22,255 bases of DNA from a virus (lineage: Duplodnaviria; Heunggongvirae; Uroviricota; Caudoviricetes). Below, one piece after another: positions 20,220-22,255 of this stretch. Location of the stretch: the IMG/VR virus record IMGVR_UViG_2648501165_000011. One strand, 5' to 3'. The notes beneath the pieces were generated by a model, which worked only from the letters and a program-made list of their open reading frames with translations, was not told where the DNA came from and made no database searches. The translations under genes and the position numbers were made by a program. The stretch's first letter is position 1, and every line of letters begins with the position of its first letter.

Positions 20220-20426
20220 TCACCCGATAAACCAGATAACAAACGCTATAAACATCGCCCCAATAGCTGCCGGGAAAAGTCCTTTGGTATAAGCGGCGAT
20301 ATATTCAATGCTGAGTTCAATAAAGCGTTCTTCATGTCCCGTTAACTTGCGAAACAAATAGATCTCTATTACGCCTATCTCAATAAAAACAAGGGTCAGA
20401 ATGGCGCTGATGATATGGCTGGTCAT
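20220..20426 (-). CDS. Small membrane protein (68 aa, 2 predicted TM), positional analogue of P2 orf78
   Basis: ORF directly after cox; two hydrophobic stretches (IISAILTLVFIEIGVIEIYLF and LFPAAIGAMFIAFVIWFIG). Confidence 0.5.
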   Translation of the reverse strand: MTSHIISAILTLVFIEIGVIEIYLFRKLTGHEERFIELSIEYIAAYTKGLFPAAIGAMFIAFVIWFIG

Positions 20427-20432
20427 TTATGA

Positions 20433-20720
20433 CTAAAGTCCCAGCCACAACAACCATGCGTCGCGGCGTTCTTTCGGTTGCTCAAAAAACGCTTTGCGCA
20501 TGCCTTCGTTAAATGCTGGCAGATATACCCAGTTTTCTGATGCACGCGTCTTTACTGAACCTGGTTTCACAAAGTCAATTGTCGGTAGCTTTGCTGCGTC
20601 AATCATGGTTCTGACTGTGGATTCCTTGCGGCCGATCATCTTGGCGAATAGTTGATATGGCACCGCTTCAAGTGGATATGGTGCTACCTGAATGAACCCC
20701 CCAAGCTCTGATTCGCTCAT
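20433..20720 (-). CDS. cox: Cox-like excisionase / early-lytic repressor
   Basis: 95 aa; AVPYQLFAKMIGRKESTVRTMIDAAKLPTIDF...NWVYLPAFNEGMRKAF...RRDAWLLWLGL parallels the remembered P2 Cox (IPYQEFAKLIGKSTGAVRRMIDKGKLPVID...YWVYLPAWNNG...IRDGWLMWLGL). Divergent from C; GGGAGA RBS. Confidence 0.85.
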   Translation of the reverse strand: MSESELGGFIQVAPYPLEAVPYQLFAKMIGRKESTVRTMIDAAKLPTIDFVKPGSVKTRASENWVYLPAFNEGMRKAFFEQPKERRDAWLLWLGL

Positions 20721-20833
20721 TGTGGTAATCTCCCTAATTCGTTCGAATGGCTCAAAATGGCTTATATCGGCTTATTTGAGTGTTTTTATGTTTGTGCCCG
20801 ATGTGGCATGTTGCGATGGAGGATATGCCCGAT
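20721..20833. promoter_or_regulatory. cox/C developmental switch region (early-lytic and repressor promoters and operators)
   Basis: 113-bp spacer between divergent cox and C; contains three GGCT(C/T)A direct repeats at 10-bp phasing (20750, 20760, 20770) and a 15-nt direct repeat TGCCCGAT(G/A)TGGCAT at 20795..20809 and 20826..20840, the second overlapping the C start codon. Confidence 0.6.
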
Positions 20834-21154
20834 ATGGCATCTTTGTCAAGCATGGGTGAAAAATTTCGCCTGATTCGTGAAGCAGAAGGTATGACCCGCC
20901 AGGAGTTTGCGGATTGTGTTGGGCTGCCTTATGGGACGGTAACTAACTATGAGGTGAGGGGGAAGCAAGTAACAGAGGGTGCCTTACTTAAGGTTACGAA
21001 ACACCCTAAATTTAAGAAGTATGCTTATTGGTTATCAACAGATGAAACGATGCCGGAGGTCGGGCAAATTTCTCCGGCTCTCTCTCTTGATGGTTCCTGC
21101 AATTCGGAGGGAGATCGCGTTTCAACCGAAACAATCCAAAAATTATCCCGCTGA
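20834..21154 (+). CDS. C: Immunity repressor (P2 C-like, HTH)
   Basis: ORF 20780..21154; likely start ATG 20834, 10 nt after GGAGGA. EKFRLIREAEGMTRQEFADCVGLPYGTVTNYE...KFKKYAYWLSTDETMPEVGQISPAL parallels the remembered P2 C (EKIVLMRKSEYLSRQQLADLTGVPYGTLSYYE...QFTKYTLWFMTNQIAPESGQIAPAL). Confidence 0.8.
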   Translation: MASLSSMGEKFRLIREAEGMTRQEFADCVGLPYGTVTNYEVRGKQVTEGALLKVTKHPKFKKYAYWLSTDETMPEVGQISPALSLDGSCNSEGDRVSTETIQKLSR

Positions 21155-21250
21155 GGCCAGAAAACTGGTTAGACCTGCTTTTTGTCTGGTCTGATTATTG
21201 CTGGAAAGAGGCTGGAGAAATTGTAGAGCGGTTCATTGGAGGGCTTCGTA

Positions 21251-22255
21251 ATGTCGATTAAGAAGCTCGAAGATGGTCGTTATTTGCTGGACATCAGGCC
21301 GAACGGACGCAAGGGAAAGCGCGTGCGTAAGGTATTTGACAAAAAATCGGTAGCGGTGGCCACTGAACGCTACATCATGGCGAACGCTGAAAAGCGGGAA
21401 TATATACAGGGCTACCGTGATCGTCGAACGCTAAATGATTTGCTTGAGTTGTGGTGGATGTATCACGGCCAGCACAGGCGTAAGGCGGAAGAAGACCGAA
21501 AACAACTGCGCAACATAATCAATGAGCTTGGCGCTGATATGCAGGCTGTGGATCTTGATAAGCTGAAAATTATCGCGTGGCGTTCTCAAAAGATAGCTGA
21601 AGGATTGAAACCGTCATCTGCTAACAGGTACATGAATCGGTTATCCGGAATGTTTTCCGTGCTGAAAAAAATAGGTCTTTGGGATGCAGAACATCCAGTA
21701 AGGGGAATTTCTATTCTTTATGTATCTCCACGAGAAATGGCGTTCCTGTCACAGAAGGAAGTGGCGCTATTGCTCGATACACTGGAGGGCGACTACTGGC
21801 GTGTTGCGCTTTTGTGTTTAAGCACAGGGGCGCGCTGGAGTGAAGCTTGTAAGCTTCGTGGTGAACAGATAGTTCATAACCGTGTAACGTTTCTTGAAAC
21901 CAAAAATGGCCGGAAGAGAACAGTGCCAATTTCGCAGGCAGTTTGTGAGGCGATCAAAACCAGAGAAACAGGCGGCTTGTTTGAGGTGAAGTACCGGGAA
22001 TTCTGCCTGGCGCTGAAAAGAGTTAAGCCCGATTTACCAAAAGGCCAGGCTGCACATGTGCTGCGGCATACGTTCGCCAGCCATTTTGTGATGAACGGAG
22101 GAAACATTATTGCGCTTCAGAAGATTCTTGGTCACGCAACCATTCAGCAAACAATGGCATATGCGCATTTTGCACCGGATTACCTGCAGGATGCGGTGGC
22201 CCTTAATCCGCTGAAAGGTGGCGTAAGTGTCCACGCAGTGTCCACGGGGGATTAA
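21251..22255 (+). CDS. int: Tyrosine integrase (P2 Int-like)
   Basis: ORF 21236..22255; ATG 21251 lies 8 nt after GGAGGG (MSIKKLEDGRYLLDIRPNGRKGKR...). Catalytic-domain motifs LSTGARWSEA, HVLRHTFASHF, LGHATIQQTMAYAHFAPDYLQDA include the conserved Arg, His-x-x-Arg and Tyr; stop is the last codon of the window. Confidence 0.9.
   Translation: MSIKKLEDGRYLLDIRPNGRKGKRVRKVFDKKSVAVATERYIMANAEKREYIQGYRDRRTLNDLLELWWMYHGQHRRKAEEDRKQLRNIINELGADMQAVDLDKLKIIAWRSQKIAEGLKPSSANRYMNRLSGMFSVLKKIGLWDAEHPVRGISILYVSPREMAFLSQKEVALLLDTLEGDYWRVALLCLSTGARWSEACKLRGEQIVHNRVTFLETKNGRKRTVPISQAVCEAIKTRETGGLFEVKYREFCLALKRVKPDLPKGQAAHVLRHTFASHFVMNGGNIIALQKILGHATIQQTMAYAHFAPDYLQDAVALNPLKGGVSVHAVSTGD

Follow-up and report, generated by a model that had tools for sequence, protein, structure and literature searches.

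The immunity repressor C of phage P2 acts at an operator of two 8-bp units spaced by 22 bp, that of phage WPhi at two 10-bp units spaced by 34 bp, and both pairs flank the -10 element (PMC1904268). In P2 Hy dis the two 8-bp units are spaced by 26 bp, i.e. 2.5 turns, and flank the -35 element (PMC1904268). Each half-site of P2 is bound by one symmetric C dimer, and two dimers cooperate (PMC2995052). P2 C down-regulates its own synthesis at high concentration (PMC3448106); autoregulation is also described in PMC1904263. The cox-boxes of P2 start 10-11 bp apart and are located over the promoter Pc (PMC3936717). By definition, C proteins within one immunity class are at least 95% identical (PMC3448106).

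The locus described here is part of a 22,255-nt stretch of viral DNA, in the following called the window. Its switch region (20400-21240, 841 bp compared) was 100% identical to Escherichia phage P88_4B11 (Xuanwuvirus, Peduoviridae), and the same region was present in 296 of 5426 complete E. coli genomes. The region very probably constitutes a bistable switch between lysis and lysogeny, belonging to a temperate phage of the P2 type, in which C would operate on a pair of TGCC repeats and Cox on a set of GGCTYA boxes (Table 1).

Genes, predicted promoters and repeats of the cox-C spacer

Cox was identified by Pfam Phage_Cox (E = 1.3e-22) and by the P2 Cox structure 4LHF (E = 3.5e-26). It is 53% identical to P2 Cox and 42% to WPhi Cox. 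C matched the P2 C structures 2XCJ and 2L49 over residues 6-88 (E = 4.4e-16) and shares 33% identity with P2 C and 41% with WPhi C. Judged by these matches, Cox and C are clear homologues of their P2 namesakes. As in P2, the genes are ordered cox <- -> C-int. The two genes are divergent and separated by a spacer of 113 bp, counted from the cox ATG (20720) to the C ATG (20834). Directly downstream of cox, in the early operon, is a strongly hydrophobic 68-aa ORF (20220-20426, minus strand) which had no match in Pfam.

C most likely starts at ATG 20834, the start assigned by NCBI PGAP in E. coli genomes; this codon is kept as CATATG in both aligned heteroimmune relatives and is preceded by GGAGGA at 20818-20823. 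RefSeq NC_049391 puts the start at ATG 20852 instead.

A promoter scan of the spacer returned a single strong sigma-70-like site, TTGACA-18-TATCCT on the minus strand, which matches the consensus at 10 of 12 positions and is the predicted early promoter Pe. Its -10, TATCCT, is a mediocre hexamer; the counterparts read from the alignment of relatives are TAAACT and TATACT. On the plus strand of the spacer the scan found no consensus site for Pc. By analogy with P2 we place the Pc -10 at TTATAT (20762-20767) in the middle GGCTYA box, where it would match the P2 Pc -10 TATAAT. Blocks used both as Shine-Dalgarno sequence and as -10, such as GGAGTATA, GGAGTTTA and GAGGATA, among others, recur in most C classes.

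Table 1. Features of the switch region and of the adjoining int gene in the window.
Feature	Position	Strand	Remarks
cox	20433..20720	-	95 aa; first gene of the early (lytic) operon; ORF, Pfam and PDB matches
Predicted cox-box 1	20749..20754	+	GGCTCA; extended ATGGCTCAAA
Predicted cox-box 2	20759..20764	+	GGCTTA; extended ATGGCTTATA; overlaps the inferred Pc -10
Predicted cox-box 3	20769..20774	+	GGCTTA; extended TCGGCTTATT
Exchangeable immunity cassette, about 285 bp	20775..21060 (approximate)		Both C operators, Pe, C residues 1 to about 75
Predicted C operator O2 (repeat copy 1)	20795..20809		TGCCCGATGTGGCAT; about +4 to +18 of the predicted Pe transcript
GGAGGATA	20818..20825		C Shine-Dalgarno GGAGGA on +; predicted Pe -10 TATCCT (20825..20820) on -
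Predicted C operator O1 (repeat copy 2)	20826..20840		TGCCCGATATGGCAT; between Pe -35 and -10; includes C ATG 20834-20836
C	20834..21154	+	Immunity repressor, 106 aa; first gene of the C-int operon; PDB match
Predicted Pe -35	20844..20849	-	TTGACA; inside the C coding region
int	21251..22255	+	Tyrosine integrase; annotation; Pfam Phage_integrase, Int_N
Two arm-type Int sites	22228-22234, 22239-22245		TGTCCAC; 3' end of int

The preliminary description had claimed two separate repeat families in this spacer. The sequence was as claimed, and both patterns exceeded chance. A direct-repeat comparison yielded the two TGCC copies at a distance of 31 bp, start to start. The pair lengthens to 18 nt at 89% identity, and no further 15-mer with fewer than three mismatches was present in the 22 kb. 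A direct repeat of 14/15 was obtained in none of 5000 shuffles of 20721-20850; the best shuffle, 13/15, was reached 19 times. The copies are C-proximal as had been stated, except that the repeat region ends at 20840 and not one base further at 20841. The second copy was correctly said to cover the C initiation codon. Three GGCT(C/T)A half-sites in 10-bp phasing had been described on the cox-proximal side, and they were found there, starting at 20749, 20759 and 20769. Across the window the hexamer GGCTYA is not enriched (16 found, 19.7 expected); a second in-phase triplet does not occur there. In a look-elsewhere test on spacer shuffles, in which any three in-phase 6-mers with a period of 10 or 11 and at least 5/6 identical columns were counted, the probability of three in-phase 6-mers was 0.004. 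A search of the whole window with the P2 cox-box consensus TTAAASNCM, allowing up to two mismatches, was uninformative (491 matches, 450 expected).

Within cox, at 20654-20662, the 9-mer GATATGGCA of operator copy 2 occurs again, and a second GATATGG is located 21 bp beyond it (20650-20681). A third C site inside cox was considered and rejected: the source of these matches is two Pro-Tyr codon pairs, which are identical in heteroimmune phages.

Natural variation leaves both families untouched. Among 11 natural variants of the window-type spacer 14 columns are variable and 3 carry indels, and none of them is in either 15-mer or in the three boxes. The footprint probability is 0.024 if only the repeats are counted and 0.0014 if the boxes are included; these values presuppose columns of equal mutability and independent variants, and the variants share descent. 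The spacing of the TGCC copies is 31 or 32 bp among them. Three variants (L095, L120 and L014) carry T20824C or A20825G, which alter the T and the A in the hexamer predicted as the Pe -10. Possibly these prophages are Pe-down and locked in; otherwise the -10 may be mis-assigned.

Co-inheritance of the repeats with C and Cox

The Citrobacter phage Shae_phiSM and the Escherichia phage Chuche have Cox proteins 97-98% identical to that of the window, and both retain the GGCTYA boxes. Their C proteins are only 48% (Shae_phiSM) and 42% (Chuche) identical to that of the window, and at the positions of the TGCC repeats each has a repeat pair of its own. ESSI2_ev239 is the reverse case. Its C is 75% identical and its sites, TTCCACATGTGACA and TTCCTTACATGGCA, spaced by 33 bp, are related to those of the window; its Cox is 39% identical and the cox-side repeats are different. 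Among 26 distinct spacers, obtained from 43 IMG/VR contigs which share the 5' end of cox, three immunity types were present, and the GGCTYA boxes were found in all 26. This is a double dissociation: each repeat family is co-inherited with its own protein, TGCC with C and GGCTYA with Cox.

A sliding comparison with Shae_phiSM and Chuche gave identities of at least 0.9 up to position 20775 or so, of about 0.45 up to approximately 21060 and of 0.8-1.0 beyond. In keeping with this profile, Chuche aligned to the query in two pieces with a coverage of 66%. From the drop in identity between about 20775 and 21060 it follows that one exchangeable cassette is made up of both TGCC repeats, Pe and roughly the 75 N-terminal residues of C. 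The C-terminal tail of C is outside of it, as are int, cox and the GGCTYA boxes. In Shae-type and some Chuche-type spacers (L002, L089, L096) a fourth box, GGCTAT or GGCTAA, is in phase with the other three. In the window type the fourth box is degenerate (GAGTGT, 20779-20784) and is located at the left edge of the immunity cassette.

With respect to the predicted promoter, copy 2 fits exactly into the spacer between the Pe -35 and -10, and copy 1 starts 10 bp past the -10. Most likely, the TGCC repeats are a C operator pair on the leftward early promoter Pe, and the GGCTYA boxes are most likely the sites of the Cox protein at Pc, the repressor's own promoter. The scheme that we infer, comprising promoter positions, binding, stoichiometry and autoregulation, would operate as follows. 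In the spacer two promoters would be face-to-face, Pe directed leftward into cox and a weak Pc, set among the GGCTYA boxes, directed rightward into C-int. Each 15-bp TGCC...GGCA repeat would be bound by one C dimer, and the two dimers would cooperate on one face of the DNA. At O1 and O2, C would occlude and bend Pe; by this lysogeny would be held and the specificity of immunity set. In lytic growth Cox protomers would bind the three boxes cooperatively as a filament over Pc and so shut off the synthesis of C and Int. C at O1 and O2 would also be in the path of transcription from Pc and next to RNA polymerase at Pc, possibly with negative autoregulation as a result; autoregulation via O1/O2 is plausible by likeness to P2. 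The overlap of O1 with the C start codon would follow from face-to-face promoters, with the predicted Pe -35 inside the C reading frame. The overlap with start codon and ribosome-binding region would then be a packing consequence of convergent promoters. In many other C classes, too, the C ATG is inside O1 or at its edge.

Alternatively, the TGCC repeats might chiefly control C expression, either because bound C or Cox blocks the start codon or the ribosome-binding site, or because the leader RNA folds over the start. Copy 2 does hold ATG 20834 and directly adjoins the Shine-Dalgarno sequence; in the minimum-free-energy fold predicted for the leader, the 5' arm of copy 2 can pair with the 3' arm of copy 1 (GGCAUGUU); and the down-regulation of C synthesis by P2 C, cited above, points in the same direction. 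However, C and Cox are DNA-binding proteins, and a DNA site does not block a ribosome. The fold of the C leader was no better than that of shuffled sequences (z = -1.44; 14 of 200 shuffles equalled it), on which ground a role of the repeats as RNA structure in the C leader was rejected. In the heteroimmune relatives the sequence of the repeats is wholly replaced, yet their placement relative to the Pe -35 and -10 is kept, which argues for a promoter operator, and the specificity of Cox follows the GGCTYA family. We consider control of C expression as the chief role improbable. For the second copy the preliminary description had suggested autoregulation or a Cox-mediated occlusion of C translation or transcription. 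A link of the TGCC repeats to Cox or to translational occlusion was not supported: the TGCC pair is better read as the C operator on Pe, and Cox goes with the GGCTYA family over the presumed Pc. As a secondary effect, a roadblock to Pc transcription is possible.

The repeats might also be non-functional remnants or by-products of coding or composition. This would agree with the lack of a window-wide enrichment of GGCTYA and with the recurrence of a 9-mer of copy 2 in cox, which is due purely to Pro-Tyr codons. Against it, the 14/15 repeat and the phased triplet far exceed what shuffled sequence yields, both families are invariant among natural variants whose flanks vary, and both have positional counterparts in the footprinted P2 and WPhi switches (PMC1904268, PMC3936717). 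We regard this explanation as highly unlikely and retain the assignment of the TGCC repeats to C and of the GGCTYA boxes to Cox.

The attachment region was inspected for further sites. The P2-type arm consensus is tgTGGaCa (PMC3448106). In addition to the TGTCCAC pair at the end of int, a second pair was present about 270 bp past the end of the window (L001 5103-5125), and the two pairs bracket attP. P2 Cox binds attP just past the int stop; at this place (L001 4863-4882) a single CGGCTTAAA and an inverted GGCTAT are present. Around attP in L001, matches to TGGCTYAWW were no more frequent than expected by chance (14 found, 13.45 expected). The att region is shared by the three phages with this Cox, and therefore they provide no independent att evidence.

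Spacing and symmetry of predicted C operators across 27 classes

To place the window switch in its family, 80 loci encoding C relatives were condensed into 27 classes whose identity across the DNA-binding region is below 85%. In 24 of the 27 classes GTCAA, the Pe -35 on the other strand, was found at a fixed distance from the helix-turn-helix motif of C. In most classes the second copy of the best direct repeat was located approximately 19-22 bp upstream of this conserved GTCAA. The commonest spacing of the repeats was 30-34 bp, present in about half of the classes; the 22 bp of P2 was among the shorter values. A spacing of 31 bp is within this commonest range and does not qualify as a departure from the P2 arrangement. 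On the cox side in-phase 10-bp triplets were a family-wide feature, with a summed score of 121 versus 65.9 ± 3.7 in shuffles. The known P2 cox-boxes, used as a positive control, were recovered by the triplet search.

Each window copy contains the dyad TGCC-N6-GGCA. It is possible, though we hold this tentatively and would not yet favour it, that each 15-bp repeat is a complete dyad-symmetric operator which is read symmetrically by the two helix-turn-helix motifs of one C dimer. The window would then have two palindromic operators, like the controller protein C.Esp1396I or lambdoid repressors. The size of the units fits: 15-18 bp offer room for both recognition helices of a dimer, and the 8 bp of P2 are too short for this (PMC2995052). 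Across the 27 classes copy 2 had a mean of 4.89 paired positions out of 7 versus 3.94 in the background (MWU P = 4e-8), and in the copy-1 zone the sum was 158, whereas shuffles matched for composition gave 130.4 ± 3.6. Palindromes of 16 bp, perfect or nearly so, occur in many classes; their arms are not related in sequence. Perfect or near-perfect palindromic units of 16-22 bp, e.g. GGTACGTATACGTACC and GGATTACATGTAATCC, were seen at loci L042, L085, L047, L050, L054, L079, L044, L088 (UTI89) and L003; they do not agree with published accounts, in which C operators are direct repeats and non-palindromic. In the Chuche-type relative, which has the same Cox, TTTCTCAAYTTAGAAA and TTTCTCATATGAGAAA flank GGAGTATA.

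Several points speak against such a reading. In the window copies themselves only 5 of 7 pairs match, which has a background probability of about 0.2 and is, taken alone, not beyond chance. In ESSI2 the right arm is better conserved than the left, and the characterised sites of P2 and WPhi have no dyad. The classes share descent, so that the family-wide statistics overstate independence, and the cox-side control zone also had a weak dyad excess (P = 0.0085).

Taken together, the sequence comparison suggests that, in many P2-type C classes, what is called a 'half-site' is the complete site of a dimer. That the half-sites of the window class and of many other C classes are complete dyad operators of 14-22 bp, each for one dimer, is a conjecture to which we give serious but less than balanced weight. 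Were it true, binding to non-palindromic direct repeats would be a peculiarity of P2 and WPhi and not a family trait, and how a symmetric dimer can occupy an asymmetric site would no longer be a puzzle in most of the family. In the literature searched we found no statement on dyad-symmetric operator units of P2-type C proteins. The family-wide dyad symmetry is the one point which could modestly revise the published picture.

Immunity class and comparison with described switches

The window C is below the 95% threshold of a common immunity class with respect to P2 (33%) and WPhi (41%); this comparison covered P2, WPhi and PhiECO5. Class IX of Nilsson, PhiECO5 of UTI89, was rejected as the class of the window on account of its 173-aa Cox and its different C. 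That Cox-family protein (L088 2861-3382) is nearly twice the usual length. Among deposited phages solely P88_4B11 and PhiR44_2 have a C at least 99% identical to that of the window, and 5 of 139 matching phage records reach 60% C identity. The C of phage P88, the namesake of P88_4B11, is just 29% identical to the window's; P88 and P88_4B11 are therefore almost certainly heteroimmune. The paper on phage P88 contains nothing on the switch, and we found no experimental work on the present immunity class.

The switch type is well known; within it, the locus represents an uncharacterised immunity class. For this class of P2-like prophages a concrete predicted operator map is now at hand. In this phage group immunity is swapped as a cassette of about 285 bp while Cox, its boxes and int stay fixed. 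Map and cassette may be used to predict superinfection immunity among prophages and to engineer these phages; they leave the view of how such switches work unchanged.

In phage 186 the lytic and lysogenic promoters are also face-to-face. Apl, the Cox-family protein of 186, binds at att and between these promoters, on direct repeats spaced by one helical turn (PMC7498355). However, 186 uses a large two-domain CI on inverted repeats plus CII, whereas the window has a small P2-type C and no cII. The restriction-modification control element C.Esp1396I can be likened to the window by description. Its small helix-turn-helix dimer has a P2 C-like structure and binds cooperatively, one dimer per directly repeated palindrome (PMC2995052), with sites 15 bp apart centre to centre. 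Possibly it is a model of how the 15-bp TGCC-N6-GGCA units are read.

The P2 switch shares most of its layout with the window. The P2 spacer is also about 110 bp long, with the same order of genes. According to the P2 record, O1 is between the Pe -35 and -10 and O2 just past the -10, as predicted for the window. The P2 Pe -35 is over the C start codon, and the predicted one of the window also overlaps the 5' end of C; in P2 the C ATG is inside the Pe -35 and O1 is three bases off. The cox-boxes of P2 and the predicted ones of the window have one orientation and a 10-bp phasing and adjoin cox. The P2 box TGTCTTATAA contains the Pc -10 TATAAT, and the position of box 2 in the window is analogous. 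Compared by eye, the window boxes on the other strand (TATAAGCCA, TTTGAGCCA) agree with the P2 consensus TTAAA(G/C)NC(A/C) at 7 of 9 positions. The differences concern the units: the half-sites of P2 are non-palindromic, 8 bp long and 22 bp apart, whereas those of the window are 15-18 bp long and 31 bp apart, and P2 has at least six cox-boxes whereas the window has three good boxes only. P2 Hy dis also has a direct-repeat C operator at Pe, but that of the window flanks the -10, at a spacing of 31 bp.

The arrangement is WPhi-like. Of the characterised repressors the C of WPhi is the nearer one to the window C; in both phages C is followed by int, and the convergent promoters of WPhi have predicted counterparts in the window (PMC1904263, PMC1904268). 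In WPhi GTCACCAATA occurs twice, flanking the Pe -10 with O1 in the -35/-10 spacer (PMC1904268), and the window repeats are in the same places. The distance from one repeat centre to the next is close to three helical turns in both (WPhi, 34 bp; window, 31 bp). The operator sequences are unrelated, GTCACCAATA in 10-bp units versus TGCCCGATRTGGCAT in units of 15-18 bp, and the C ATG is outside O1 in WPhi but inside O1 in the window. WPhi Cox recognises a 12-nt direct repeat (PMC5009727). An operator design different from the classic P2 arrangement had been considered for this locus. Yet the repeats flank the predicted Pe -10 and the phased boxes are on the cox side, as in P2 and WPhi. On its predicted layout the window switch is a WPhi-like three-turn variant with longer units, and no break from the P2 design.
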